Notes: generated from the sequence alone by a model not told the origin. A DNA stretch of 64,000 nt from Candidatus Bathyarchaeota archaeon (GCA_018396915.1 JAGTRD010000002.1:48706-112705), one strand, 5' to 3'. Shown: positions 7,494-25,011, counted from the stretch's first letter. Numbers and translations are program-made.

Positions 7494-8516
7494 TCAGTAA
7501 CCCGTTGCGCCCTTCTCTATTCCAGCCATCTGTCTAATAATCTTACCAACCTTCTCGATGGGGTGGGCTTCAAGCTCCTGCATCAGACTATTCAGCTTCT
7601 CCATACTCTTCTTCGGGTCACCGCTCCACTCCTTGGCAAATTCGCCGCTCTGAACAAACTTCACAACCTTACGCATATTATCCTTGACATGCTCATCGAT
7701 CACCTTGGGGCCTACCGTGAGGCTACCGTACTGGGCTGTGTGCGATATCATCTTCATCATTCTGGTCAATCCACCCTCATACATTAGGTCCACCATAAGT
7801 TTCAGCTCGTTTGCAACTTCGAAGTATGCAAGTTCCGGTTGATAGCCCGCCTCAACCAAAACTTCGAATCCTTTCTTGACTAGCTCCATGGAACCTCCAC
7901 CCAAGACTATCTGTTCGCCGATTATATCGGTTTCAGCTTCCTCCTTGAATGTTGTCTCGATGACTCCTGCCTTTGTGGATCCTAGGGCCTTGGCCATCGC
8001 CAACACAGTCTCCTTTGCCTTCCCTGAAACATTCTGGTAGACGGCTATCAATGAGGGTACACCAAAACCTTCCTTGTAGATCTCTCTGAGCCGAGATCCT
8101 GGGCTCTTTGGGGCAACCATGACTACGTCGACATTCTTTGGTGGGATTATTTGTTTGAAATGTATGTTGTAGGCATGTGAGCAGCTCAGTGTCTTTCCTT
8201 CCTTGAGGTTTGGCTCTATCTGTTGCTTGTATACGGTTGGCTGTTCGAGATCTGGAAAGAGCATATGTATTATGTCGCCCTTCTTTGAAGCTTCATCCAC
8301 CGTCATAGGTGTGAAGCCTTCCTGTTCGGCGAGCTTCCAAGATTTGCCGCCTGGCCTCAAACCGACAATTACGTTCACACCCGAATCTCTGAAGGTTAAG
8401 GCTTGGGCTCGGCCCTGATTTCCATACCCTAATACAGCAATTGTCTTGCCCTCAAGATACTTCATATCTGCATCCTGGTCATGATATATCTTCGCCATCT
8501 CAAACACCTCATACAT
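7494..8516 (-). CDS. ilvC: Ketol-acid reductoisomerase
   Basis: 340 aa, [17 protein letters not shown] Rossmann motif. Confidence 0.95.
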
Positions 8517-9021: not shown

Positions 9022-10698
9022 TCACCCTATAACATCTTTTAAGCTATATCCTGCTGGGACCATAGGTAGGACGTTCTCCTCAGGATCTATTGGCACATCT
9101 ATGACTGTCGTGACCTCGCTTTTCAATGATTCTTTAACTGCTCTGGAGAACTCCTCGACTGAGCCGATACGTAGACCCTCGGCTCCGTATGCTTCAGCCA
9201 GCTTTTGGAAGTCTGGAACATCCCCTAAACTGACTGCTGAATATCTCCTATTGTAGAATAGCCTCTGCCATTGGGCGACCATTCCAAGCATTCTATTGTT
9301 CAATATAATGACTGTGACCGGAATATTTTCAGTTACTGATGTGGCTAGGGAGTTCTCTGTCATCATGAAGCTCCCGTCGCCGGCTACATCTACGACTGGA
9401 ACATTGGGGATAGCTGTCTTTGCACCTATGGATGCTGGGAAACCGTATCCCATGCATCCGAAGCCTCCTGAGGTGATGAAGGTTCTAGGTTTCAGAACCT
9501 TGAAGTATAGGGATGCCCACATCTGATTTTGACCTACCTCGGTCGTCACTATGGCTTCTGGAGGTAAGACTCTTCTAAGCTCCTTTAGTATTTTTGGAGG
9601 TGTTAGGTCTCTGCCGGAATTTTCAGTCTTGACATTATTGGTCTCCTTCATTTCCTTAAGTTTTCTTGACCAGGCTGTATCCTTCTTTTCAGTTAAGGTC
9701 TTTGTCAAGGCTCTGTATAGCGCCTCTAAAGCCATCTTTGCATCGCTGATTATCGCTAGGTCTACACACCTGTTCTTTCCAATCTCCGCTGGATCTATAT
9801 CTATATGTATCACCTTGGAGGCTGGGCAGAACTCATCTAGCTTGCCTGTGGTTCGGTCGCTGAATCTACATCCAACTGCAAGTAGTGTGTCAGCTTCATA
9901 TATAAGGCGGTTCGCCTCCTTTGATCCGTGCATACCGATTATTCCTATTGATAGAGGGTGGTCTTCTGGAATTGAGCCTTTACCCATTAGGGAAGTTGCG
10001 ACTGGGGCTAGTATGGTCTCTGCGACTTTCTGCAGTTCCTCTGAGGCATCCGACAGTATAACTCCTCCACCTGCCAGGATGAGGGGCCTCTCCGAGTTTG
10101 CCAGTATCTCTGCGGCCAATCCTATCTTTTCAGGGTCAGGCTTGTAATCTGTTCTGTAACCTCTAACCTCAACCTTCATGGGGAATTCGACTTCAGCCGA
10201 GTCCATCTGGATGTCTTTTGGAAGGTCTATCAAGACTGGACCTGGTCTACCTGTCGATGCGATGTGGAAAGCCTTCTTCACTGTGACTGGTATATCTTCA
10301 ACTCTGCGTGGTTGGAAACTGTATTTGGTCACTGGACTTGCTATTCCGATCATATCTGCCTCCTGAAAAGCGTCTAGACCTATTTGCGATGTTGATACTT
10401 GACCTGTTATGGCGACTATGGGCGATGAGTCCAGGTGTGCTGTTGCTATTCCAGTTATGAGGTTTGTGGCCCCTGGACCAGAAGTTGCCATGCACACCCC
10501 GGTCTTTCTTGAAGCCCTGGCATAACCATCGGCCATATGCGCAGCTGATTGTTCATGTCTTACCAGAATATGCCGAACTTTTGAGTCCAGAAGAACGTCA
10601 TATACTGGCATTATGGCTCCTCCAGGCAATCCGAATATTACTTCTACTCTTTCTTTCTCCAAAGATTCTACGAGGGCCTTTGCACCGGACATTCTCAT
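9022..10698 (-). CDS. ilvB: Acetolactate synthase large subunit (TPP enzyme)
   Basis: 558 aa TPP/FAD family; upstream of ilvN-ilvC. Confidence 0.9.
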   Translation of the reverse strand: MRMSGAKALVESLEKERVEVIFGLPGGAIMPVYDVLLDSKVRHILVRHEQSAAHMADGYARASRKTGVCMATSGPGATNLITGIATAHLDSSPIVAITGQVSTSQIGLDAFQEADMIGIASPVTKYSFQPRRVEDIPVTVKKAFHIASTGRPGPVLIDLPKDIQMDSAEVEFPMKVEVRGYRTDYKPDPEKIGLAAEILANSERPLILAGGGVILSDASEELQKVAETILAPVATSLMGKGSIPEDHPLSIGIIGMHGSKEANRLIYEADTLLAVGCRFSDRTTGKLDEFCPASKVIHIDIDPAEIGKNRCVDLAIISDAKMALEALYRALTKTLTEKKDTAWSRKLKEMKETNNVKTENSGRDLTPPKILKELRRVLPPEAIVTTEVGQNQMWASLYFKVLKPRTFITSGGFGCMGYGFPASIGAKTAIPNVPVVDVAGDGSFMMTENSLATSVTENIPVTVIILNNRMLGMVAQWQRLFYNRRYSAVSLGDVPDFQKLAEAYGAEGLRIGSVEEFSRAVKESLKSEVTTVIDVPIDPEENVLPMVPAGYSLKDVIG

Positions 10699-11202: not shown

Positions 11203-12405
11203 TTACCTTTCCAATCTCCTTCTAGCAATGTTCGCTATCTTTGTCTGTAGACCCCATAGTTCAGTGAATCCTGCGGCTTTCGTCTGGTCGAATGTTGTGT
11301 CCACACCGTATGTTGCAAGTTTCTGGTTGTAAAGTGATTTAGGAGATTTTCTTCCGACTATCTGATATGCCCCTTTGTAGAGTTTGAGTCTGACTTCACC
11401 TTCAACCCTCTCCTGACTCTTATTGATGAATGCGTTCAGATCCTCCATAAGGGGGTCCATCCATAGGCCTGAGTAGACTGCGACTGCCCACTCATTATCT
11501 ACGAGATGCTTGAAGGCAAGTTCATGTCTGGTCAAAACACATTTCTCTAGATCCTTGTGTGCCTCTATTAGAACAATGGATGCTGGGCACTCGTAGACTT
11601 CACGAGATTTTATTCCTACAATACGGTCTTCAACATGGTCTATGCGACCTACACCATTCCTTCCAGCTATATGGTTAAGGGACATTATCATTGTGACTGG
11701 ATCTGTCTTCGACCCGTTTATTGAGATAGGTGTCCCAGCATTGAATCCTATGGTTAAATATTCAGCCTTATCTGGACTTTTCTCAGGGGCTACGGTCCAT
11801 TCAAAAACCTCCTCCGGCGGTTCAACTGAAGGATCCTCCAATACTCCACACTCAATTGATCGACCGTATAGATTCTTATCTATGCTATATTGGCTCTGTC
11901 TCTTAGCAGGAATGGGGATGCCACGCTCTTCAGCATATTTGATCTCCTCTTCTCGTGAAAGCCCCCACTCCCTTATAGGCGCTATGATCTTCAACTCTGG
12001 AGCCAAAGCTGATATTGTTACATCAAACCTGACTTGGTCGTTGCCCTTACCTGTGCATCCATGAGCCACAGCATCTGCACCCTCCCTCTTAGCTACCTCT
12101 ACCAGTTTAGAGGCGATGAGGGGTCTGGATAATGCGGTTGATATTGGATATTTTCCTTGATACATCGCGTTTGCTCTGATCGCTGGATACACATACTCTT
12201 TGACAAACTCTTCCCTTGCATCTATTGAGTAGTGTCTTTCGGCGCCTATCCTCTCAGAGAATTCCTGAATAAGTTTCAAATCTTCCCCTTGACCAACATC
12301 GACTGTCACAGTGATGACGTCACATCTATACTTCTCAATCAGCCATCTTATCGCTACGGATGTATCTAATCCTCCAGAATATGCTAAGACTATTTTACCA
12401 CCCAT
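11203..12405 (-). CDS. argG: Argininosuccinate synthase
   Basis: 400 aa, AYSGGLDTS PP-loop. Confidence 0.95.
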   Translation of the reverse strand: MGGKIVLAYSGGLDTSVAIRWLIEKYRCDVITVTVDVGQGEDLKLIQEFSERIGAERHYSIDAREEFVKEYVYPAIRANAMYQGKYPISTALSRPLIASKLVEVAKREGADAVAHGCTGKGNDQVRFDVTISALAPELKIIAPIREWGLSREEEIKYAEERGIPIPAKRQSQYSIDKNLYGRSIECGVLEDPSVEPPEEVFEWTVAPEKSPDKAEYLTIGFNAGTPISINGSKTDPVTMIMSLNHIAGRNGVGRIDHVEDRIVGIKSREVYECPASIVLIEAHKDLEKCVLTRHELAFKHLVDNEWAVAVYSGLWMDPLMEDLNAFINKSQERVEGEVRLKLYKGAYQIVGRKSPKSLYNQKLATYGVDTTFDQTKAAGFTELWGLQTKIANIARRRLER

Positions 12406-12438: not shown

Positions 12439-13329
12439 CTATTTCTTTGATGTTTTAATTACGTAGTCGATTATTTTCGAGGCGATGTTGACACCTGTAG
12501 CTGTTGAGGCCCCTCTGAACTCTATTGTTGAGTTAACTTCATGTACAACCGGTCCATTCGGACTCTCCATGGCGTCAACAGCCAAGACACCTCCCCCCAC
12601 CGCCCTAGCTGCCCTCAACACTATATCCTCAAGTTGGCTGGATGTTGGGCAAGGTATGGTCGTAGCGCCCAAGGCCACGTTTGTTCTCCAAGCCCCTGCC
12701 GGAGCACTGCGATAAACTGATACTGCAACCTCATCACCTACGACAATAGTCCTTATATCTCTAGGCGGCCTTTCCACCATCTCTTGTATGTAATGGATTT
12801 GTAAAAGTGCATTATTCATCTGTTCTCTATGTTCAAGTATGGCCTCAGCTGTAGCCCGGTCTCTAACAGGTGAGACCAGCCTACCCCAACTCCCGACGAC
12901 TGGTTTTACTACTGCAGGATAGCCTATTTTCTCGAGTGCTTCTAATGCAGCTTCAGATGTGAAGGTTACATATGTCTTGGGCGTTGGGACACCTGCATTT
13001 TCTAATGCTAGAGAGGTGAAGAGCTTGTTTCCGCAGATTAGGGATGTGTTGAAGGAATTCACGACTGGGAGACCTTTCCTCTCCAAAACTGCAGAGATGT
13101 GAAGTCCCCTGAAGTAGCTTATGCATCTTTGAAGTATTATGTCTCCGTATGTTTCTGAATCATACTTACCACTGATATTTAGGCATATATTCTTTCCATC
13201 TATTAGATTCGTTGATATTCTCTTTCTTCTTGCAGCTTTGATCAGAGCTTTCTCTTCCCATCTCGTACGGTCATATATGATCGATAGTTTCTTTGGCAAC
13301 GATAGTCTATCACTCTCCCCAGTCTTCAC
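12439..13329 (-). CDS. lysX: LysX/ArgX family ATP-grasp ligase (RimK-like; LysW--aminoadipate/glutamate ligase), paralog 1
   Basis: 296 aa, similar to Thermus LysX (IYDRxRxEE.., GSWGRLV, YIQE...PRDIR). The annotated ATG overlaps lysW by 20 nt; the true start may be the downstream TTG at about 13287. Confidence 0.85.
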   Translation of the reverse strand: MKTGESDRLSLPKKLSIIYDRTRWEEKALIKAARRKRISTNLIDGKNICLNISGKYDSETYGDIILQRCISYFRGLHISAVLERKGLPVVNSFNTSLICGNKLFTSLALENAGVPTPKTYVTFTSEAALEALEKIGYPAVVKPVVGSWGRLVSPVRDRATAEAILEHREQMNNALLQIHYIQEMVERPPRDIRTIVVGDEVAVSVYRSAPAGAWRTNVALGATTIPCPTSSQLEDIVLRAARAVGGGVLAVDAMESPNGPVVHEVNSTIEFRGASTATGVNIASKIIDYVIKTSKK

Positions 13330-13483
13330 CGACGACCTCAGCGGTCTTTAGGTTGCATTTCCCATCTTTATCGAATGTAAGCTCATACTCAAGGCCACAG
13401 TCTGGGCAGGTCACGATCTCACCCTCAACAGCATCTTTTGGAATTGTAATTTCACCGTCACACTCAGGGCACTTGCATTTCAT
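13310..13483 (-). CDS. lysW: LysW amino-group carrier protein, paralog 1 (57 aa, below ORF-track cutoff)
   Basis: Manual translation of minus strand: MKCKCPECDGEITIPKDAVEGEIVTCPDCGLEYELTFDKDGKCNLKTAEVVGEDWGE; Zn-ribbon plus hallmark C-terminal EDWGE tail. Confidence 0.8.
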   Translation of the reverse strand: MKCKCPECDGEITIPKDAVEGEIVTCPDCGLEYELTFDKDGKCNLKTAEVVGEDWGE

Positions 13484-13576
13484 TCCGTTTCTGTCTCTCG
13501 CTTATTTTTTAGAATCCTCAGATCTTCAAATGCGTAAATGTCTGATCTCCTTAAAAGACTTTCTTTTGCAGTTGCT

Positions 13577-14023
13577 TCACCATTCACGCAGAATAATCAT
13601 CGTATTTGTGTTCGAGACTCCTCTAACCCTCCTGATCTCTTCAACACACTTGTTAACTTCAGTTATACTTGACGCAGAGATCATCACTGCTATGTCATAT
13701 TGACCTGTAATTTCATGTACCGTCTCAACATTCGAGATCTTAACTAGCTCCTGTGAAATCTCCGATGTTGGATACTCGGGATTGACTGAGAGGAGAGTTA
13801 TCGCCTTCGCCCCAGTCTTGAATCCTACTTGAATCGTGAACTTTTTAATATCCCCCGACTTGATCAGTGAGGAGATTCTCTTTCTAACAGCCCCTTCAGA
13901 TAAACCTGTTCTCTTTCCAATATCGACATAAGCTGCACGGCCATCATTCTTTAATATGTTTATTATCTTATAGTCTATTTCGTCCAATACTGATCTCCAA
14001 AGTATGGTATGATTATCGCACAC
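13577..14023 (-). CDS. lysM: Lrp/AsnC family transcriptional regulator (LysM-like regulator of the lys cluster)
   Basis: 148 aa: HTH N-terminus plus RAM domain; sits between the two divergent lysW-lysX modules. Confidence 0.75.
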   Translation of the reverse strand: MCDNHTILWRSVLDEIDYKIINILKNDGRAAYVDIGKRTGLSEGAVRKRISSLIKSGDIKKFTIQVGFKTGAKAITLLSVNPEYPTSEISQELVKISNVETVHEITGQYDIAVMISASSITEVNKCVEEIRRVRGVSNTNTMIILREW

Positions 14024-14111
14024 AAAGTAAGAATATCAAACGACCTTTATTTATTTTTCGACGTAAACTTTAATAACGATACGATATTTGTAAATAGCCA
14101 GGTGGATAAGG
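14024..14111. promoter_or_regulatory. Divergent promoter region between lysM(-) and lysW2(+); AT-rich TATA-like elements (tttaataa, atatttgtaaata) and SD AGGTGG 6 nt before the TTG start of lysW2
   Basis: 88-bp AT-rich spacer between divergently oriented genes; motifs read from the sequence. Confidence 0.4.
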
Positions 14112-14285
14112 TTGAAAGGGAAATGTCCAGACTGTTCAGCTGAAATAGAGATAGCTGACGACTCAATAGAAGGGGAAATAGTGGTATGCCCAGACTGTGG
14201 CCTCGAGCTAGAGGTTAAGAAGGACGCGACCGGCAAGATTGAGCTCAGACAAATAACTATAGAAAGGGAAGACTGGGGTGAATAA
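14112..14285 (+). CDS. LysW-like amino-group carrier protein, paralog 2 (57 aa, TTG start; missed by ORF track, its shadow appears as the 14051..14236 minus ORF)
   Basis: Manual translation: (M/L)KGKCPDCSAEIEIADDSIEGEIVVCPDCGLELEVKKDATGKIELRQITIEREDWGE*; same Zn-ribbon and EDWGE C-terminus; stop immediately precedes lysX2. Confidence 0.72.
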   Translation: MKGKCPDCSAEIEIADDSIEGEIVVCPDCGLELEVKKDATGKIELRQITIEREDWGE

Positions 14286-15143
14286 TTGAGTAAGACTATT
14301 GGGATGATCTACGACCAGATCAGGCCTGAAGAAAGATTATTAATAGACTCGGCCAGAAGGAAATCCCTGAGGCTCAACCTCCACGATGCGGAACGAATAA
14401 ATCTCGACCTTCTAGATCATGGAAAAGAAGAGCCCTTCGAAGATGTTATTCTACAAAGGTGCATAAGCTACTTTCGCAGTCTACATCTGACAGCATCACT
14501 AGAAAAAAGGGGGATTACTGTAATAAACTCTTCAAGGATAGCTTCAATCTGCGGCAACAAGCTATTGACCACACTTGAACTTGCGGAGGCAAAGATTCCT
14601 ATACCACGGGCAAGATTGGCGTTCAGCGTAGAATCAGCGTTGGATGCTCTATCAAAGCTAGGGTACCCAGCGGTACTAAAACCGATCATTGGAAGTTGGG
14701 GGAGACTCGTCGCCCCCCTAAAGGATGTTGAGTCAGCGAAAGCCATATTCGAGGATAGGGAACACATGTTTCCACTATACCAAGTCTACTACATTCAAGA
14801 GATGATTCAAAGACCACCTAGAGACATAAGATGCTTCATCATAGGAGATGCTGTAGTGGCGGCAATATATCGTTACGCACCTAAGGACGATTGGCGTACC
14901 AACACCGCGAGGGGTGGACATGTTGAACCTTGCAAGGTTACTCAGGAAATTGAGGAGCTTGCCCTGAAGACTGTTAAGGCCCTCGGTGAAGGCGTATATG
15001 GTGTCGACATGATGGAGAGTGATAGAGGCCTACTCATAAACGAGGTGAACTTCACAACAGAGTTTAGAAATAGCGTACCAGCCACTGGTGTAGATATCCC
15101 CGGAAAGATCCTTGATTTCGCTGCTAGCAAGGTGAGAAAGTGA
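14286..15143 (+). CDS. LysX/ArgX family ATP-grasp ligase, paralog 2
   Basis: 285 aa, about 50% identical to paralog 1; TTG at 14286 or ATG at 14304. Confidence 0.85.
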   Translation: MSKTIGMIYDQIRPEERLLIDSARRKSLRLNLHDAERINLDLLDHGKEEPFEDVILQRCISYFRSLHLTASLEKRGITVINSSRIASICGNKLLTTLELAEAKIPIPRARLAFSVESALDALSKLGYPAVLKPIIGSWGRLVAPLKDVESAKAIFEDREHMFPLYQVYYIQEMIQRPPRDIRCFIIGDAVVAAIYRYAPKDDWRTNTARGGHVEPCKVTQEIEELALKTVKALGEGVYGVDMMESDRGLLINEVNFTTEFRNSVPATGVDIPGKILDFAASKVRK

Positions 15144-15144
15144 G

Positions 15145-16197
15145 ATGAGGATATCGATAGTAGGCGGATCGGGATATGCTGGAGGCGAACTCCTACGTCA
15201 ACTGCTACGCCATCCAGAGGCGGAAGTAACTAGGGTTGTATCTAGAAGCCATCTCGATGAGTATGTGTTTCGAATACATCCGAATCTGCGTGGATATACA
15301 GATCTGAAATTCTCCCCTCTAAACATTTCAGATATAACTTCAAATTCAGACATAGTTTTCACAGCAACCCCACATGGAACATCAGCTGAGATGGTTCCAA
15401 AATTCTTAGAAGTAGGTCTGAAGGTTATAGATCTTGGAGCAGACTTTAGGCTAAGGAACCCTGAATATTATCCTGAATGGTATGGGTGGAGTCACCCGCA
15501 TCCTGAACTCTTAAACACGGCCATCTACGGTCTGCCAGAGCTTCATAGAAATGAGATCAGGAATGCAAAGCTGGTAGCATGTCCAGGATGTATGGCAACC
15601 GCAACAATCCTTGCAATAGCCCCACTGGTGAAGGAGCAGGCAATAGACTTTGAGAGGATAGTTGCCGACGTTAAGATAGGTTCCTCTGGAGCAGGAAACA
15701 CCCCAACCAGAGCTTCCCACCATCCAGAGCGTGCAAGTGGTGTGAGGCCCTACAAGGTTACTGGGCACCGTCATATTCCTGAGATCGTGCAGGAGCTGCA
15801 ACTCCTCGCAGGTGTAAAGCCGAAAATCTCATTCACACCTCACGCTGTCCCAATTATACGTGGAATACTAGCGACAATACACACATTCCCAGAGGTGAAC
15901 CTCACAATCTCAGATATCTGGAAAATCTACCGTTCCATGTACAGCCATGAACCATTCATAAGATTCGTGAAGGATAGAAGAGGACTACATCAACTCCCTG
16001 ACCCTAAAGCCACTATAGGCTCTAACTTCTGCGACATAGGATTTGAAGTTGACACATATGCGGATAGAATTGTACTGTTCAGCGCAATAGACAATCTTGT
16101 TAAAGGAGCATCGGGCCAAGCTATCCAATGTTTCAACATAATGCTTGGCATAGATGAAAGAACAGGTATCGCCGGACCGGAATGCTATCCGGTGTGA
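15145..16197 (+). CDS. lysY: N-acetyl-gamma-glutamyl-phosphate reductase family (LysY/ArgC)
   Basis: 350 aa, RISIVGGSGYAGGELLR, catalytic Cys region. Confidence 0.9.
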   Translation: MRISIVGGSGYAGGELLRQLLRHPEAEVTRVVSRSHLDEYVFRIHPNLRGYTDLKFSPLNISDITSNSDIVFTATPHGTSAEMVPKFLEVGLKVIDLGADFRLRNPEYYPEWYGWSHPHPELLNTAIYGLPELHRNEIRNAKLVACPGCMATATILAIAPLVKEQAIDFERIVADVKIGSSGAGNTPTRASHHPERASGVRPYKVTGHRHIPEIVQELQLLAGVKPKISFTPHAVPIIRGILATIHTFPEVNLTISDIWKIYRSMYSHEPFIRFVKDRRGLHQLPDPKATIGSNFCDIGFEVDTYADRIVLFSAIDNLVKGASGQAIQCFNIMLGIDERTGIAGPECYPV

Positions 16198-16203
16198 CCA
16201 GAA

Positions 16204-17010
16204 ATGCTTCTAGTGGTTAAGCTCGGAGGCAGCACCCTCGAGGAGGGCGTATCAGAAGAGTTTGCAAGGGACATCAAGAACACGTATGAAAACCACAAAC
16301 TCGTAATCGTCCATGGCGGAGGAAGGAAAGTGACGGAAATAGCCACTAGACTGGGAAAGGAGCAAAAATTGATTGTTTCACCAGAAGGCTTCAGAAGCAG
16401 ATACACAGACAGGGAGACAGCTGAGATCTATACGATGGTCATGGCTGGAAAAATAAACAAAGAGATTGTCTTAGCTCTTCAACGCCAGAGCCTGAATGTC
16501 ATCGGACTCTCTGGGATAGACGGTGCACTTGCAGTTGCTGAACGGAAAAAACAATTGATAATAATTGATGAAAGAGGCCGAAAAAGAGTAATAGAAGGTG
16601 GGTATACAGGTAAGATAAGTAGAATCAATGTAGAACTTTTGAAGATACTGATCGAAAACGGATACATTCCAGTGGTGGCACCTGTCGCCGTTGGGACTGA
16701 GTTTGAACCCTTAAACATTGATGGAGATCGTATGGCTGCAAATATAGCTGGATCCCTAAACGCGGATATGTTGATCCTACTAACCGATGTGGCCGGTCTA
16801 AAGCTGGATGGGAAACTTATTCAAAGAATGAGCTTAGTTGAAGCGAAGGATTCTCTCTCAAGGATAGGACACGGAATGATAACAAAGGTCTACGCAGCGA
16901 TCGAGGCTATAGAGATGGGGGTCAAGAAGGTTTCAATATCTCCCGGCATGGAATCCTCGCCAATAACCTTCTCAATAGAGAATAAATGTGGAACGGTGAT
17001 AGAAAGATGA
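16204..17010 (+). CDS. lysZ: Acetylglutamate kinase family (LysZ/ArgB)
   Basis: 268 aa amino-acid kinase fold, VVKLGGS. Confidence 0.9.
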   Translation: MLLVVKLGGSTLEEGVSEEFARDIKNTYENHKLVIVHGGGRKVTEIATRLGKEQKLIVSPEGFRSRYTDRETAEIYTMVMAGKINKEIVLALQRQSLNVIGLSGIDGALAVAERKKQLIIIDERGRKRVIEGGYTGKISRINVELLKILIENGYIPVVAPVAVGTEFEPLNIDGDRMAANIAGSLNADMLILLTDVAGLKLDGKLIQRMSLVEAKDSLSRIGHGMITKVYAAIEAIEMGVKKVSISPGMESSPITFSIENKCGTVIER

Positions 17011-18206
17011 ACGAGACAGAAATTGTTGAGATTGAGCAGAGATATATGGCAAATGTTTACGCAAAGAGAAATCTGATAGTGACCAAGGGTGAGGGTGCTA
17101 AATTATGGGATATCAAAGGCAGGGAATACATAGACTGTATGGGCAACTATGGGGTAGCGATAGTCGGACACTGCCACCCAAAAGTTGTCGAAGCAATAAA
17201 AAGACAGTCTGAGAAACTCATTTCATGCCATGGCTCATTATATAATGACTCCAGGTCTAGATTGCTCGATAAGCTCGCCGAGATATCTCCCAAAAACCTC
17301 CGAAGATTCTTTCTCTCAAATAGTGGAGCCGAAGCTGTGGAATGCGCTATAAAACTTGCTAGAAGATACACTGGTAAAAAGGAGATCATTGCAATGATGG
17401 GGGGTTACCATGGTAAAACGTTGGGAGCTCTATCAGCAACTTGGGATAAGAAGTATCGTACCCCATTCCTCCCGTTACTTCCAGAATTTAAACATGTACC
17501 CTACGGCGATGCAGCCAGATTGCGTGAAGCTATAACAGAGAACACCGCAGCCATCATAGTAGAGCCTATTCAAGGAGAGGGTGGCATCAGGATCCCTCCT
17601 GAAGGATATCTCCAAGAGGTTAGAGAAATATGCGATGAGAAAGGAATATTGATGATTGCTGATGAGGTCCAGACAGGGTTCGGGAGAACGGGCAAGATCT
17701 TCGCATGTGAACATTGGCAAATCGTACCTGACATATTATGCTTGGCTAAGGCTGTTGCTGGAGGCCTCCCCTTGGGAGTCACGATGGCCAAGGAGGACAT
17801 AATGCTCTCCTTCAAGGTCGGTGAACACTCAACCACTTTCGGAGGAAACCCACTCGTATGCTCGGCTGCATATGCTGCAATAGAGGTTTTATTGGAGGAG
17901 AGACTTACTGAGAGGGCAAAGGAACTCGGCCGTTTCTTCATGGGTGAACTGGAGAATCTGAAATCTAAATACAGGATTATACGTGATGTCAGGGGTTTGG
18001 GTCTAATGGTTGGTATCGAGTCGAGATTTGACGTGTTCAAAATCCTCCAGAACCTGATGTTGGATGGAGTACTCGCACTTGATGCAGGAAGAAACATAGT
18101 GAGATTTCTACCACCATTAGTAATATCGAGAGAACAGCTTTCAACAGTAGTTGAAGTTCTTGACAGGGTCCTGGCGGAGGATGAGAATGAACGCCTACGA
18201 AGTTAA
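16986..18206 (+). CDS. lysJ: Acetylornithine/LysW-gamma-lysine aminotransferase (LysJ/ArgD), class III PLP
   Basis: 406 aa; the likely true start is ATG 17007 (MNETEIV...), giving an ATGA overlap with lysZ. Confidence 0.9.
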   Translation: MWNGDRKMNETEIVEIEQRYMANVYAKRNLIVTKGEGAKLWDIKGREYIDCMGNYGVAIVGHCHPKVVEAIKRQSEKLISCHGSLYNDSRSRLLDKLAEISPKNLRRFFLSNSGAEAVECAIKLARRYTGKKEIIAMMGGYHGKTLGALSATWDKKYRTPFLPLLPEFKHVPYGDAARLREAITENTAAIIVEPIQGEGGIRIPPEGYLQEVREICDEKGILMIADEVQTGFGRTGKIFACEHWQIVPDILCLAKAVAGGLPLGVTMAKEDIMLSFKVGEHSTTFGGNPLVCSAAYAAIEVLLEERLTERAKELGRFFMGELENLKSKYRIIRDVRGLGLMVGIESRFDVFKILQNLMLDGVLALDAGRNIVRFLPPLVISREQLSTVVEVLDRVLAEDENERLRS

Positions 18207-19287
18207 ATTTCTGATCGATATGCTGAGGCTGTATAGCCCAAGCGGTGGAGAATCCGCAGTTGCGAAATACCTTAGAGAAACTCTTTCAAGAAGTAACTTT
18301 GACGTAAGAATTGACGACACTGGAAATGTAATAGGAACCTGCGGTTCAGGGTCACCTACACTACTCCTATGTGGCCATATGGATACTGTTCCTGGGCAAT
18401 TGGAGGTTAGACTTGACGGCGATCTCCTATATGGAAGAGGTGCTGTAGATGCAAAAGGACCACTCGCTAGCATGATCATGGGCTCGAATATACCTGATCT
18501 CAATGGCAAGATAGTTGTCGCCTGCCTAGTCGATGAGGAAGGAAATGGCAAAGGTGTGAAGCAACTCATCAAAGATAATGTTCAAGCAGATTACGCTATA
18601 TTTGGAGAGCCGAGTGGGGCATGCAATATCACGATTGGATATAAGGGTAGTCTACATGTGTATGTCGAATGTATAACCCCTACAGCACACTCGTCAGCAC
18701 CATGGCTTTCAAGCAACGCAATAGAGAAAACTTATGAGTTCTGGGATAATATAAAGGGCTACAATTTTGACTGCGATATAGCTGAAAGCCGCTTCTACTC
18801 AGTAACTTCATGTTTGACAGCGCTTAAGGGCGGTGGAACACCCGGCCTCATTCCATCAAGATGTGAGGCAGAGATCGATATAAGAACACCCCCTCAGACC
18901 GCGCCTGAAAAAATCATTAAAACAATAACAGAATTAGCTCAAGACTATGAGAGGAGAAATCCAGATGTCAAGATAAAGATTAGAGACGCGGGATATATTC
19001 CAGCTTTTGAGGCAGATCCGAGATCTATCTTAGTTAGAGCTTTAAGATACTCGATCAGGAAAGTTTGTGGGCGGACACCAATTCTCCTTAAAAAAACAGG
19101 TACGGGAGATATGAATGAATTAGGCTCCAAATTGAATATACCTATGGTTGCCTACGGTCCTGGAGATTCTCATTTAGACCACACACCAAATGAACATATC
19201 TCAATCTCTGAATACCTCACGAGCATAAGGGTGTACCGAGAGGCGATTCCCATGATTTTCAAACTCCATAGAAACGTAGGCGATTAA
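18151..19287 (+). CDS. lysK: LysK/ArgE M20 family deacylase (LysW-lysine/ornithine hydrolase)
   Basis: 378 aa, M20 metal-binding motifs (HMDTV, DAKG, EEG); the likely start is 18181/18187. Confidence 0.85.
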   Translation: MKFLTGSWRRMRMNAYEVKFLIDMLRLYSPSGGESAVAKYLRETLSRSNFDVRIDDTGNVIGTCGSGSPTLLLCGHMDTVPGQLEVRLDGDLLYGRGAVDAKGPLASMIMGSNIPDLNGKIVVACLVDEEGNGKGVKQLIKDNVQADYAIFGEPSGACNITIGYKGSLHVYVECITPTAHSSAPWLSSNAIEKTYEFWDNIKGYNFDCDIAESRFYSVTSCLTALKGGGTPGLIPSRCEAEIDIRTPPQTAPEKIIKTITELAQDYERRNPDVKIKIRDAGYIPAFEADPRSILVRALRYSIRKVCGRTPILLKKTGTGDMNELGSKLNIPMVAYGPGDSHLDHTPNEHISISEYLTSIRVYREAIPMIFKLHRNVGD

Positions 19288-19289
19288 CT

Positions 19290-20684
19290 ATGGTCTTCAA
19301 AAAACTAAATCATAAAATTCTCATCCTCGATACCACTTTAAGGGAGGGGGAACAGACGCCGAACGTAAATTTCACGATTGAAGAGAAGCTCCAGATAGCA
19401 AGGAAGCTCGATGAAATTGGTGTCAATATGATTGAGGCTGGAGATCCCAACGTTTCTAGAGATGTGAAAGAAGCTATCAGAAGAATAGCCAGGGAGGGTC
19501 TCAGGGCTGAGATACTTGCCCACTGTAGGGCCTTAATTCCAGATGTTGAAAATGCTGCATCGTGTGACGTTGATAGAGTTGCAATATTTCTGGGAACATC
19601 TAAAACCCACTTACAACATAAACTGAGAAGAGATGAGGAAAATGCTGTTGAGCTTGTGACGAAGGCAATAGAACATGCTAGAGAACAGGGGTTAAGCGTT
19701 AGGTTTACAGCTGAAGATGCGTCGAGAACTGACTACAAATTTCTTACACGCATATGCAAAGCTGCTGAAGATGCTGGGGCAGATAGAATTAGTATTCCCG
19801 ATACAGTCGGAATAATGACACCTGACAAGGTCAGGGAACTATTTCAGAACCTCAGCAAAGAATTGAGAGTTGAACTTGATACACACTGCCATAATGATCT
19901 TGGAATGGCCACAGCTAACACTCTGGCGGCCTTGGAAGGAGGAGCGACGGCAGCTCATGTTACAATCAATGGCTTAGGCGAAAGGAGTGGAATAGCGCCT
20001 CTAAGTGAAATAGCTGTGGCCTTAAAAGTGATATATGATGTCGACACAGTGAATCTTGAAGAGTTGCCTGCCATCTCGCTTATGGTGGAGAGGTTCAGCG
20101 GCGTCGTTCCTGCCCCGAATACACCAATAATTGGTGAGAATGCTTTTACACATAAGGCAGGAATACATGTTGCGGGTGTTCTAGCCGACCCATCGACATA
20201 TGAAGGGTTCCCACCAGAACTGATAGGCCGACAGAGGGAAATAGTCATTGACAAATATACAGGATTCCATGCGGTCAAGTCCAGACTCGAGAGGTTGGGT
20301 GTCTGCCTCAATGATGATCAAATGGCGAAGATTGTGCAAGAAATCAAGGAGCGGCCGACAATAACAAAGTTTAGAGATGCAGACCTCATAGAGCTGGCTG
20401 AGAAGATAACTGGAAGAAACCTCCAAGCAGAGATTCCAACAAAAGTTGAAGCACTTATAAGAGTCAAATGCGAATCCAACATATATACAACAGCCATAGC
20501 TAGAAGACTAAAAGCCCTCAAGAAGATAAACAAGGTCTATGAAGTCACTGGAAACTACGATATTGAAGTTACAGTGATAGCTGAATCAACGGCTGAGCTT
20601 AATGAGATACTGGAGAGGATAAGGGAGATAGAAGGTGTTGAAGCCACTGAAACCCAGCTAGTTCTAAAAAAATTCGAGGTATGA
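19290..20684 (+). CDS. Homocitrate synthase with fused C-terminal RAM (Lrp/AsnC ligand-binding) domain
   Basis: 464 aa; N-term LDTTLREGEQTP..HCHNDLGMATANTLAA (LeuA/HCS family); last about 80 aa (NYDIEVTVIAESTAELNEILERIREIEGVEATETQLVL) resemble the RAM domain of the adjacent Lrp; last gene of the lys operon. Confidence 0.85.
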   Translation: MVFKKLNHKILILDTTLREGEQTPNVNFTIEEKLQIARKLDEIGVNMIEAGDPNVSRDVKEAIRRIAREGLRAEILAHCRALIPDVENAASCDVDRVAIFLGTSKTHLQHKLRRDEENAVELVTKAIEHAREQGLSVRFTAEDASRTDYKFLTRICKAAEDAGADRISIPDTVGIMTPDKVRELFQNLSKELRVELDTHCHNDLGMATANTLAALEGGATAAHVTINGLGERSGIAPLSEIAVALKVIYDVDTVNLEELPAISLMVERFSGVVPAPNTPIIGENAFTHKAGIHVAGVLADPSTYEGFPPELIGRQREIVIDKYTGFHAVKSRLERLGVCLNDDQMAKIVQEIKERPTITKFRDADLIELAEKITGRNLQAEIPTKVEALIRVKCESNIYTTAIARRLKALKKINKVYEVTGNYDIEVTVIAESTAELNEILERIREIEGVEATETQLVLKKFEV

Positions 20685-22380: not shown

Positions 22381-24189
22381 ATGCGTCAACCAATCGTCGT
22401 GGTCTTAGGCCATACGTCGTAGAGTTAAAATAAATTCACGACGGGCAAAGTAGACCACGGCAAAACAACACTACTTGATAAGATTCGAGGAACAACCGTT
22501 GCAAAGAGAGAACCTGGCCAAATAACCCAGTGGATAGGGGCAAGCTTACTCCCTTCAGAAATAATCATGAAAAACTATGGAGAGATCCTTGAAAGATTCA
22601 AAGTTCAAATAAAGATTCCTGGATTACTATTCATAGACACGCCTGGACATGAGAGTTTTTCGAATCTCCGTCGTCGCGGAGGCTCCGCTGCAGACATAGC
22701 GATATTGGTTGTAGACATTATGCAAGGAGTTGAACGCCAGACCGAGGAGTCTATCGAGATACTCAAATCTAGAAGGACACCATTTGTCGTGGCAGCTAAT
22801 AAAGTTGACTTGATTCCGGGGTGGAGGAGCGTAGGTTCAAAATCGATCACACAATCAGTCATATCTCAACCCACTGAAGTTCAAAGGGAGATGGATACTA
22901 AAATTTACACTATAATGGGTTCACTATCAAAACTTGGATTAAACTCTGACAGGTTTGACAGAATCAAAGATTTTACGAAGACCATTGCAATAATACCTAC
23001 AAGCGCAAAAACAGGAGAAGGTATTCCTGAGCTTCTAACGATCCTAGTTGGACTCACACAATCATTCATGAGAAAAGAACTGTTGACGAGTAGTGGACCC
23101 GCGAGAGGAACGATTCTAGAGGTTGAGGAGGAAGTTGGTTTAGGAGTTACCGTAAACGCAATTATCTATGATGGAAAATTAAATATTGGGGATAGAATAG
23201 TTCTCGGAGGTAAAGGTGGGCCGATACTCACCACGATCAGGACAATATTAGTTCCAAAACCATTAGATGAGATAAGGGATCCAAGAGATAAGTTTTCAAC
23301 TGTTCAGAGTGTGGGGGCAGCTTCTGGAATAAAGATCGCCGCACCAAACCTAGAGAATGCCCTCGCCGGTTCATCTCTATACGCGATTCCCGATAAGGAA
23401 AGCCCTGAAACCTACGTAAATATGATCAAAGAAGAGTTTGAGAGGCTGATAATACATACTGATAAGGATGGAGTAATCCTCAAGACCGATACTCTGGGGG
23501 CATTAGAAGCTATAACCGAGTCGCTAAGAAAGGCTGGCACACCTATAAGGATAGCTGACGTTGGGGACATCTCAAAAAGAGAAGTCATAGAGGCAGAAGT
23601 AGTCAAAGGAAAGAACCGGTTACTTGGCATAGTTTTGGGATTTAACGTAAAGACATTACCAGATGCTGAGGAGGAGGCTAGAAAGAGAGGTGTCCCAATA
23701 ATTATAGCGGATATAATATATGATTTATTAGATAAATATTCGAAGTGGCTAGAAGCCGAGAGATATGCTAATTTAAAGGCAGAATTGGAAAGCCATATCA
23801 GACCTGGAAAAATAAGGGTTCTTCCAGGACTAATATTCAGGAGAAGCAAACCCGCAATCTTTGGTGTAGAAGTCTTGGCTGGTAGAATTGGGCAGAAATA
23901 TCCGTTGATAAATGGTGATGGAAAGAGGATAGGAGAGATTATGCGAATCCAAGATAGAGGTAGAGATGTTGGCGAGGCCATTTCAGGAACCCAAGTAGCA
24001 GTCTCTGTGGATAAAGCTGTAATTCATCGAAACGTATTCGAAGGCGATATATTATATGTAGCCGTTCCAGAAAGGTCAGCGAAGGAACTTTTAACCAGAT
24101 TAAGAGATCACATTAGCCCTGAAGAGGTGGAAGTACTCAGGGAGCTAACCGAAATAATGAGGAGAGAGAATCCGTTCTGGAACATTTAG
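22381..24189 (+). CDS. infB: Translation initiation factor aIF5B (IF-2); ORF interrupted by a 36-nt insert. Proposed structure join(22381..22413,22450..24189), 590 aa
   Basis: Exon 1 MRQPIVVVLGH (22381-22413) and, in the same frame after a 36-nt stop-containing insert, VDHGKTTLLDKIRGTTVAKREPGQITQWIG...IDTPGHE... Together they reconstitute the canonical aIF5B N-terminus and P-loop. The ORF track only reports an internal ATG at 22567. Confidence 0.85.
22414..22449 (+). other. Candidate bulge-helix-bulge-type pre-mRNA intron in infB (36 nt, in frame, contains TAG and TAA)
   Basis: Insert acgtcgtagagttaaaataaattcacgacgggcaaa splits GH|VDHGKT. Internal 6-bp stem CGTCGT(22415-20)/ACGACG(22438-43) with a 17-nt loop. 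Exon GCC (22409-11) pairs with intron GGC (22444-46). The 5' junction lies after the 2nd nt of a 3-nt bulge (at|a). Exon-exon helix GTGGTC(22399-404)/GACCAC(22453-58) flanks the structure. Confidence 0.5.
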
Positions 24190-24263: not shown

Positions 24264-24698
24264 TTGGCGAAATTCAAACTGGTGATATCGGATCCGAATC
24301 TAGGGAAGGCCTCAGTGATGGAACTGGAGGGGGAAAAGGCAAAACCCCTTTTGGGAAGGCAAATAGGAGACATATTCGACGGCTCTATTATAGGATTGAG
24401 TGGCAGAGAGGTTAAGATAACAGGTGGCAGTGATAAAGATGGGATACCTCTCAGAGGGGATGTTCACGGTGGCGTGAAAAAGTATTTACTGCTCACAAAG
24501 GGCGTAGGTTTCAGAGGAAGAAGTGGAGAGAGAAGAAGAAAAATCGTTAGAGGCCGAATGATTACCGATGAGACATATCAGATAAATCTAGTCTTAACAA
24601 GAATAAATAAAGAAAATGGTGGAAAAGTACAATCCTCCACCAATGAAGTTTATGAGGATGGGACCAATGAAAGCCAAGGTGCTAAGAGAGAACCGTAA
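24264..24698 (+). CDS. rps6e: Ribosomal protein S6e
   Basis: 144 aa, MAKFKLVISDP..GIPLRGDVHGG. Confidence 0.9.
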   Translation: MAKFKLVISDPNLGKASVMELEGEKAKPLLGRQIGDIFDGSIIGLSGREVKITGGSDKDGIPLRGDVHGGVKKYLLLTKGVGFRGRSGERRRKIVRGRMITDETYQINLVLTRINKENGGKVQSSTNEVYEDGTNESQGAKREP

Positions 24699-25011
24699 TC
24701 CATTGTTAAAGCGTCGGGAGTTGCTTATAGAAGTTATACATGATGACGCCTCCGGAACTCCTGAAAGACAAACGCTGAGAAGGTTCTTGGCATCACAACT
24801 TAATGAGAAACTCGAAAATTTATTCTTATTGAAGGTTGAAGGTAGGAAGGGCGCAGACAAGTCTCTATGTCACGTTGAGATATATGATGATAGAGAACAC
24901 GCAGAGGAAATACTCCCGAGACACATAATCAATAGGAACATTCCACCTGTAGGAGGAAAATCTGTGGAAGGGGGAAAAGCAGTTGAACCAAAGAGTTCAG
25001 AGAAGGAGTGA
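24616..25011 (+). CDS. rps24e: Ribosomal protein S24e
   Basis: NPLLKRRELLIEV motif; the true start is probably an internal ATG (24652 or 24664), which reduces the overlap with rps6e. Confidence 0.85.
   Translation: MVEKYNPPPMKFMRMGPMKAKVLRENRNPLLKRRELLIEVIHDDASGTPERQTLRRFLASQLNEKLENLFLLKVEGRKGADKSLCHVEIYDDREHAEEILPRHIINRNIPPVGGKSVEGGKAVEPKSSEKE

Follow-up and report, generated by a model that had tools for sequence, protein, structure and literature searches.

Paired LysW-type carrier and LysX/ArgX-type ligase genes in a divergent bathyarchaeal cluster for lysine and, putatively, arginine biosynthesis

We examined a cluster of amino acid biosynthesis genes in a 64,000-nucleotide stretch of a Candidatus Bathyarchaeota archaeon assembly (GCA_018396915.1, contig JAGTRD010000002.1, positions 48706-112705), referred to below in its entirety as the window, with positions counted from its first nucleotide. 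The cluster contains two genes for LysW-type amino-group carrier proteins, W1 and W2, each lying directly upstream of its own ATP-grasp ligase gene, X1 and X2, as an earlier note made from the DNA sequence alone had described. The two modules diverge around a regulator gene. X1 has an ArgX-like substrate pocket and is followed by argG, X2 has a LysX-type pocket and is followed by lysY, lysZ, lysJ, lysK and a homocitrate synthase gene, and there is a single lysY/lysZ/lysJ/lysK set in the cluster and in the whole window; we therefore regard the cluster as a split system of the Sulfolobus kind that has two carriers. Our preferred reading, on balance probable though far from certain, is that this is a carrier protein-dependent cluster serving both lysine and ornithine/arginine biosynthesis, in which each ligase would prefer the carrier encoded next to it and LysZ, LysY, LysJ and LysK would be shared between the branches. 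The components and their chemistry are known, but no characterised system combines two carriers and two ligases with a single downstream set.

Two carriers and two classes of ligase

The products of W1 and W2 are zinc-ribbon proteins of 57 amino acids, and both reading frames are present where the earlier note had placed them. Each protein has two CxxC motifs (CPEC and CPDC in W1, which begins MKCKCPECDG and ends AEVVGEDWGE; CPDC twice in W2, which ends ITIEREDWGE), and both share the terminal EDWGE with three solved LysW proteins. They are 56% identical to each other, and the Pfam records of both include PF21344 (Zn_ribbon_LysW). Against NF041070, the NCBIfam model of LysW/ArgW carriers (cut-off 75 bits), W1 passes with an E-value of 5.8e-24 and W2 falls slightly short with an E-value of 1.7e-20; W2 scores 42.1 bits against TIGR01206. 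The closest PDB entries are LysW of Sulfolobus tokodaii for W1 (49.6 bits) and LysW of Thermus thermophilus for W2 (39.6 bits). Apart from their sequences, the identity of both carriers is indicated by the adjoining LysX/ArgX-type ligase genes and by the presence of LysZ, LysY, LysJ and LysK in the cluster.

Orthologues of each carrier occur in at least eight related species, whose ligases are 72-79% identical to those of the window. Among eight related species, nonsynonymous divergence (pN) of the carriers ranges from 0.055 to 0.22 and synonymous divergence (pS) from 0.73 to 0.93, with synonymous sites saturated and with one pair misaligned by an indel left out of the comparison; both carriers are under purifying selection. 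The earlier note had listed the two genes as missed by its open reading frame (ORF) track, and they were missed by that track only, since both are called genes in a public assembly (GCA_038852215.1, a Bathyarchaeia metagenome-assembled genome (MAG), contig JAWCKH010000001.1).

The two ligases are 48% identical to each other, close to the previous estimate of about 50%. Both pass TIGR02144 (LysX_arch, cut-off 275.6 bits), a RimK-type ATP-grasp model that cannot distinguish LysX from ArgX. In direct comparison with S. tokodaii ArgX (PDB 3vpb), X1 scores 196.6 bits and X2 164.7 bits. A five-residue signature of the substrate pocket, at positions 182, 192, 203, 258 and 259 of Thermus LysX, has been defined by the Nishiyama group and reads F-I-T-NS in LysX, I-Y-V-GF in ArgX and Y-I-T-NA in the bifunctional Thermococcus enzyme (PMC12998189); mutagenesis at the pocket positions shifts the preference between glutamate and alpha-aminoadipate (PMC12998189, PMC10433800). 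We rebuilt the three solved ligase sequences from PDB alignments, verified the Thermus numbering by counting, and recovered FITNS for T. thermophilus LysX, IYVGF for S. tokodaii ArgX and YITNA for Thermococcus kodakarensis LysX.

The pocket of X2, FITNS, is identical to that of T. thermophilus LysX and fits the signature F-I-T-N-[ST]. The pocket of X1, IVVGA, does not fit it, and X1 was therefore not filed as a LysX; compared with IYVGF of S. tokodaii ArgX, three of its five residues are identical (I182, V203 and G258) and the other two are smaller hydrophobic residues. Among 158 distinct ligases, position 258 is G in all 96 ArgX-like and N in all 62 LysX-like sequences, position 203 is V or I in the former and T in the latter, and position 182 is aliphatic in the former and F in the latter. 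The differing pockets set the pair apart from a single LysX clade, in line with what the earlier note had proposed. The gene context of the window recurs in related loci, where homocitrate synthase accompanies the X2-type pair and, in most of them, argG adjoins the carrier and ArgX-like ligase.

The earlier note had suggested checking the ligases by phylogeny, which gave a mixed answer. In a neighbour-joining tree with bootstrap, X2 clusters with Nitrososphaerota ligases that have the pocket FITNT (79%). X1 does not group with the ArgX of Sulfolobales: the ArgX sequences of Sulfolobales and Desulfurococcales (L085, L086, P0121, P0129, P0147, P0177, P0191) cluster at 100% with Thermus and Thermococcus LysX, apart from the X1-type ligases of Bathyarchaeia, Nitrososphaerota and Methanomethylicia. 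Orthology of X1 with the characterised Sulfolobales ArgX is unsupported in this tree, whose deep nodes are weak (28-48%), and for this reason we call X1 ArgX-like by its inferred function and not as an orthologue. This may mean that glutamate specificity has evolved repeatedly, or it may reflect long-branch attraction.

We also considered class-specific residues on the ligase surface as candidate readers of the carrier tail. The strongly discriminating positions are those of the pocket (182, 203 and 258-261) and of the 154-163 loop. Position 8 of the ligase is R in 92 of the 96 ArgX-like sequences and Q, H or T in LysX-like sequences, but it is I in S. tokodaii ArgX, and we make no claim of contact.

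Carrier tails, proposed mechanism and alternatives

The carrier residues preceding the common EDWGE terminus differ with the class of the ligase. We sorted 144 distinct carrier/ligase pairs, in a sample dominated by Bathyarchaeia, by the motif of the ligase and counted positions from the carrier C-terminus; 125 pairs fell into the two classes (88 ArgX-like, 37 LysX-type). Every carrier linked to an ArgX-like ligase has the ending [A/S]-E-x-x-(G)-EDWGE, with A at position -10 in 87 of 88 and E at -9 in all 88, whereas LysX-linked carriers have A at -10 in 19 of 37 and E at -9 in only 7 (T in 14, Q in 8, V in 3, K in 3). Position -7 is E in 36 of the 37 LysX-linked carriers and in 54 of the 88 ArgX-like-linked ones, and position -6 is G in 83 of 88 ArgX-like-linked carriers compared with G in 13, R in 11, K in 7 and E in 6 of the LysX-linked carriers. 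The Fisher p-value for E at -9 (1.5e-22) ignores the relatedness of the sequences and is therefore only an indication.

The pattern also holds within single clusters. Of 26 distinct loci with two carriers, all have E at -9 in the ArgX-linked carrier, and 22 have another residue there in the LysX-linked one. The carriers of the window conform to it: W1, ending in KTAEVVGEDWGE, has a tail of the ArgX-linked class (A-E-V-V-G-EDWGE), and W2, ending in RQITIEREDWGE, has one of the LysX-linked class (I-T-I-E-R-EDWGE). In the clade of the window each carrier class forms a well-supported orthologue group (96% each), and the two carriers have therefore long been kept apart there. At one two-carrier locus (L033, carrier genes at 8318-8488 on the minus strand and 9807-9977 on the plus strand), the genes are identical at 117 of 117 nucleotides of the zinc-ribbon part and at 22 of 45 nucleotides of the tail, which suggests gene conversion or a recent duplication in which the partner-specific tails were retained, with an assembly artefact as a further possibility. 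Taken as a comparison of sequences, the association between tail and ligase supports, without proving, partner-specific carriers.

The mechanism that we propose has a lysine and an arginine branch. In the lysine branch, X2 would use ATP to join alpha-aminoadipate, supplied through the route of homocitrate synthase, whose gene comes last in this operon, to the gamma-carboxyl of W2's C-terminal glutamate. In the arginine branch, X1 would join glutamate to W1, and the argG product encoded in the same operon would act later. The single LysZ-LysY-LysJ-LysK set would phosphorylate, reduce, transaminate and release both carrier-bound intermediates, and these shared enzymes would accept both carriers. 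Each ligase would prefer the neighbouring carrier, which it would read from approximately seven residues before EDWGE: ArgX-like ligases may need A-E at -10 and -9 and usually G at -6, LysX-type ligases may accept or favour different tails that have E at -7, and the carrier requirement is predicted to be strongest on the ArgX-like side. The earlier note had likewise regarded the downstream enzymes as shared; the cluster and the window do hold only one set, from which we infer the sharing itself.

A stricter version, which we put forward as a tentative possibility, treats the tails as orthogonal tags: each ligase would recognise only its own carrier (A-E..G versus ..E[KR]), one LysZ-LysY-LysJ-LysK line would process both, and the single carrier of Sulfolobus would be a derived state in which the ArgW-type tail was kept. 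If this were true, the cell would have two separately sized and separately regulated carrier pools, with the shared enzyme line partitioned between lysine and arginine.

Several observations weigh against carriers that are preferred by their neighbouring ligases and against the division of labour proposed here. The tail statistics come from a sample dominated by Bathyarchaeia and carry no phylogenetic correction, and an A-E tail is also present in 7 of the 37 LysX-linked carriers. The S. tokodaii LysW has an ArgX-type tail (AEQVGEDWGE), and LysW of the related Sulfolobus acidocaldarius is reported to serve both LysX and ArgX (PMC12998189, PMC10433800); for these two reasons cross-use of carriers is biochemically possible, so that the earlier proposal of dedicated carriers has indirect backing from tail residues that track the partner ligase but faces this alternative. 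On the same comparison a W1-type carrier could be usable by X2 too. The conversion at L033 shows that the globular domains are exchangeable. In the carrier tree, LysX-linked and ArgX-linked sequences lie on opposite sides, but the deep bootstraps are 4-16%, and we therefore make no claim that ArgW and LysW are separate lineages of ancient origin. X1-type ligases are separated from Sulfolobales ArgX in the ligase tree, and the glutamate specificity proposed for X1 therefore rests on pocket motif and gene context. A second LysY/LysZ/LysJ/LysK set, or an acetyl-dependent arginine set, may be present elsewhere in the MAG, as our paralogue search covered the 64-kb window of a 262-kb contig. Finally, the literature that we searched yielded no biochemistry for any two-carrier system.

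Many of these points favour the main rival explanation, in which the two carriers are interchangeable: the carrier would be a stoichiometric protein substrate of which one copy is encoded in each independently switched operon so that enough of it is supplied, and the tails would reflect lineage drift or a mild tuning to the ligase. Such an explanation agrees with the conserved promoter-like box that each carrier gene has for itself and with the direct abutment of each carrier gene on its ligase gene, as it does with the common carrier of Sulfolobus, the identity of the globular parts at L033 at the DNA level, the unsupported deep phylogeny of the carriers and the occasional A-E tails beside LysX. 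It is harder to reconcile with the presence of E at -9 in every ArgX-like-linked carrier across Bathyarchaeia, Nitrososphaerota and Methanomethylicia and its replacement in 30 of the 37 LysX-linked carriers, with the tails at L033 that stayed distinct while the rest of the genes was homogenised, and with the long separation of the two orthologue groups in the clade of the window. We consider interchangeable carriers possible but doubtful.

A third explanation, which we think rather unlikely, is asymmetric: W1 would be a general carrier for both ligases and W2 a lysine-only carrier unusable by the ArgX-like ligase, so that part of the carrier pool would be reserved for lysine. The near-invariance of ArgX-linked tails next to the variability of LysX-linked ones would be explained in this way, the tail of W1 is nearly identical to that of S. 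tokodaii LysW, and the S. acidocaldarius LysW serves both ligases. However, E at -7, far more regular beside LysX-type than beside ArgX-like ligases, may reflect a requirement of the LysX-type ligases as well, and W1 has V at this position.

It is less probable still that X1 is not the equivalent of a glutamate-specific ArgX but is bifunctional for glutamate and alpha-aminoadipate, or acts on another amino acid, in which case the minus-strand module may not be strictly for arginine. The separation of X1-type ligases from Sulfolobales ArgX, which join Thermus and Thermococcus LysX at 100%, speaks for this explanation, as do the residues of X1 at positions 192 and 259, which are unlike the Sulfolobus ArgX motif, and X1-type ligases are the sole ligases found near lysYZJK in most Bathyarchaeia. 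Against it, every ligase of the X1 class has G258 and V/I203, position 182 shares its aliphatic character with ArgX, argG is linked to the module, and lysine already has a dedicated LysX-type ligase and a homocitrate synthase. The haloarchaeal ArgX, moreover, is glutamate-specific although its motif is not G-F (PMC10433800).

That either small ORF is a chance reading frame or a decaying duplicate has a negligible probability: W2 does have a TTG start and a score of 72.8 bits against a cut-off of 75, but pN far below pS in both carriers across at least eight species, the retained CxxC pairs and EDWGE, the conserved upstream boxes, the AGGTGG ribosome-binding site in front of W2, which abuts its ligase gene, and the public annotation, which calls both genes with PF21344, all argue against it, and we regard chance-ORF and pseudogene readings as ruled out by this conservation, as far as sequence goes.

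Occurrence in other archaea and comparison with known systems

The earlier note had set the arrangement apart from that of the organisms known to it, but it is widespread. We scanned one genome per species for X1-type ligases, which gave 80 loci in Bathyarchaeia, Nitrososphaerota and Methanomethylicia (L005-L084), and scanned metagenomes for X2-type ligases, which gave 80 further loci (L087-L166). A LysW-type ORF lies directly before the ArgX-like ligase in all 77 loci that include upstream DNA. Both carrier-ligase pairs are present in 33 loci (26 distinct carrier pairs) of Bathyarchaeia and Nitrososphaerota, and all 33 have a single Y/Z/J/K set per cluster. The two-carrier layout is thus found widely in Bathyarchaeia and ammonia-oxidising archaea and is not peculiar to the window.

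Three layouts can be distinguished. In layout A, found in most Bathyarchaeia, the cluster consists of W-ArgX*-Y-Z-J-K only, with no LysX-type ligase within 8-10 kb; it resembles the haloarchaeal ArgW type and has the look of an arginine-only system. Layout B, argG-W-ArgX*-Y-Z-J-LysM-(HCS)-W-LysX*-K, where HCS is homocitrate synthase, occurs in Nitrososphaerota (L022, L056, L075 and about a dozen metagenome loci). Layout C, HCS<K<J<Z<Y<LysX*<W<LysM>W>ArgX*>argG, is that of the window. Pairing is not universal for LysX-type ligases, since some metagenome LysX clusters have no carrier adjoining the ligase; in one of them, a lysM-lysX-lysYZJK cluster (L146), there is no carrier between lysM and lysX. 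In S. tokodaii and Pyrolobus fumarii, argX stands at the end of argG-argH-carA-carB, and no LysW-like ORF was found within 6 kb of it, uncalled ORFs included, which fits the published common-carrier model for Sulfolobus.

Among cultured organisms, Nitrosopumilus maritimus may be a two-carrier case. Its published metabolic model assigns LysW to Nmar_1287, ligases to Nmar_1288 and Nmar_1295, LysZ to Nmar_1290 and a homocitrate synthase-like protein to Nmar_1293, and the model paper mentions one LysW only. The gene numbering suggests that Nmar_1287-1296 follows layout B, with a second carrier. A search for the two-carrier layout through homologues of a marine LysX-type ligase gave no named cultured strain among the top 120, and the N. 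maritimus case therefore rests on the gene numbers of the model.

The bench-studied systems, those of Thermus, Sulfolobus, Thermococcus and Natrinema, all have a single carrier. In that of Sulfolobus (Ouchi et al. 2013, as summarised in PMC12998189 and PMC10433800), entry is divided between two paralogous ligases, one for lysine (from alpha-aminoadipate) and one for arginine (from glutamate), one LysZ/Y/J/K-type set serves both branches (as one set is found here in the 64-kb window), the regulator is a LysM-type Lrp protein and the homocitrate synthase has a RAM domain; the tail of W1, too, is like that of S. tokodaii LysW. It differs in having one common carrier, whereas here each ligase has its own carrier gene and the tails are unlike, and in the position of argX after argG-argH-carA-carB with no LysW ORF within 6 kb. 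Natrinema gari resembles the minus-strand module in that a carrier gene, ArgW, is paired with a glutamate-specific ligase, ArgX, feeding arginine, but its lysine comes from the diaminopimelate route, and LysX is absent (PMC10433800); relative to it, the window adds a second carrier, a LysX-type ligase and homocitrate synthase. The name ArgW, which the earlier note had offered as a label for a separate carrier of the glutamate/ornithine branch, is accordingly not free, being already used for the haloarchaeal carrier (PMC10433800) and in NCBIfam NF041070.

Thermococcus kodakarensis makes both lysine and ornithine on a carrier with shared downstream enzymes (Yoshida et al. 2016, as summarised in PMC12998189), but with one carrier and one bifunctional ligase (Y-I-T-N-A) in place of two of each. 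Thermus thermophilus shares the LysX pocket F-I-T-N-S with X2, and its LysW is the closest solved relative of W2; it differs in using the carrier for lysine only and in making arginine by the acetyl route. The Nitrososphaerota (ammonia-oxidising archaea) have the same inventory as the window, namely two carriers, ArgX-like and LysX-type ligases and one Y/Z/J/K set, but with all genes on one strand, whereas those of the window diverge around the regulator, and with the LysX-linked tail PAQVEGEDWGE in contrast to the ..T.E[KR]EDWGE of the window type.

Carrier protein-dependent amino acid biosynthesis serves as a model for the divergence of lysine and arginine biosynthesis from a promiscuous ancestor, and the two-carrier layout is an intermediate state missing from the published evolutionary schemes that we found. 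We found no paper describing or testing a two-carrier arrangement in the searchable literature, which does not include the original Sulfolobus and Thermococcus studies, and the mentions of two lysW genes that turned up concern an unrelated bacterial transporter gene. The layout raises the question of whether carrier and ligase both encode specificity, and the tail rule names residues to consider: beside ArgX-like ligases, E at -9 is invariant and A at -10 nearly so. Where an annotation or a metabolic model assumes a single LysW for each genome, as that of N. maritimus does, a small correction would be needed.

Regulator, putative promoters and neighbouring genes

The features of the cluster are listed in Table 1. 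The ORF of X1 extends as far as a GTG at 13329. Its conserved start, however, is a TTG 10 nt past the W1 stop, and NCBI calls the protein in this 286-residue form; the first base of X2 is the base directly after the W2 stop, and AGGTGG precedes the TTG start of W2.

Table 1. Features of the divergent carrier-ligase cluster, in window coordinates.
Feature	Position	Strand	Evidence and remarks
argG, argininosuccinate synthase; closes the minus-strand module	11203..12405	-	Pfam Arginosuc_synth on the identical gene in L001
X1, ArgX-like ATP-grasp ligase	12439..13299	-	TIGR02144 310.9 bits; pocket I-V-V-G-A
W1, LysW/ArgW-type amino-group carrier	13310..13483	-	ATG start, 57 aa; NF041070 83.9 bits
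Conserved TACGCATT downstream of the W1 box	13527-13538	-	alignment of 11 related loci
B recognition element (BRE)/TATA-like box AAAAGAAAGTCTTTTAAG upstream of W1	13550..13567	-	alignment of 11 related loci
LysM-like Lrp/AsnC regulator	13577..13987	-	NF040947 LysM 173.3 bits (cut-off 180); 136 aa per NCBI
BRE/TATA-like box CGACGTAAACTTTAATAACGATACGATAT upstream of W2	14059..14087	+	alignment of 11 related loci
W2, LysW-type amino-group carrier	14112..14285	+	TTG start, 57 aa; NF041070 72.8 bits
X2, LysX-type ligase	14286..15143	+	TIGR02144 316.4 bits; pocket F-I-T-N-S
lysY/argC-type reductase	15145..16197	+	TIGR01850 440 bits; single copy in window
lysZ kinase	16204..17010	+	NF010662 289.8 bits (cut-off 194)
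lysJ aminotransferase	17007..18206	+	TIGR00707 444 bits; 399 aa per NCBI; ORF from 16986
lysK carrier-lysine/ornithine hydrolase	18187..19287	+	366 aa per NCBI; ORF from 18151
Homocitrate synthase with C-terminal RAM (AsnC-type ligand-binding) domain	19290..20684	+	TIGR02146 456 bits (cut-off 413.55)

The Lrp regulator that the earlier note had seen between the modules is there and is LysM-like. Its Pfam record consists of HTH_AsnC-type and AsnC_trans_reg, its ORF extends to 14023, a spacer of 93 nt separates it from W1, and its position beside the lysine operon is constant in all loci with the layout of the window. In the alignment of 11 related loci, the conserved order before W1 is AAAAGAAAgTCTTTTAAG followed by TACGCATT, and the consensus of the box upstream of W2 is CCGAAATCTTTAATA..GTACGATAT. 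The two boxes differ, and each is a putative promoter of its own carrier gene. Relatives of the window also have a conserved ATCGTAC approximately 60 nt upstream of the lysine-operon box, which could be a LysM site or part of the promoter of lysM itself.

Family models bear out the continuation of the plus-strand module, as given in the earlier note, through lysY-lysZ-lysJ-lysK to homocitrate synthase. The top model for LysZ, NF010662, is that of a bifunctional [LysW]-aminoadipate/[LysW]-glutamate kinase. LysJ-specific models score under their cut-offs for lysJ, and lysK scores 322 bits with NF003367 (cut-off 363) and 289 bits with TIGR01902 (cut-off 163). Residues 377-461 of the homocitrate synthase match the LysM model at 67.5 bits, and HMGL-like and AsnC_trans_reg are its recorded Pfam domains; its RAM domain is probably a lysine feedback sensor, as in the Sulfolobus enzyme. 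Rfam and tRNA scans of the window gave no hits.

Two observations concern genes elsewhere in the window. The gene for translation initiation factor aIF5B (22381-24189, plus strand) is split within its P-loop codons by a 36-nt insert (22414-22449) that carries two in-frame stop codons and whose removal restores VVLGH|VDHGKT and a protein of 590 amino acids. In 14 distinct related Bathyarchaeia sequences this site also carries an insert, 34-38 nt long and mostly not a multiple of three in length; the inserts have variable interiors and conserved boundaries. The insert region folds at -33.2 kcal/mol (z = -8.1) into a consensus structure resembling a bulge-helix-bulge, in which an exon-exon helix and a 4-bp central helix can be recognised, a 3-nt bulge holds the 5' junction and the inner helix has compensatory changes. 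The insert has the appearance of a conserved mRNA intron of the archaeal kind. No gene is called at 22381-24189 in the public annotation. None of the papers that our literature search found mentions aIF5B; the archaeal protein-coding gene that they cite as having such an intron is cbf5. The gene for ribosomal protein S6e (24318-24712, plus strand) is represented in the public annotation by two short calls of 60 and 67 amino acids, and a single frame runs through it free of stop codons.

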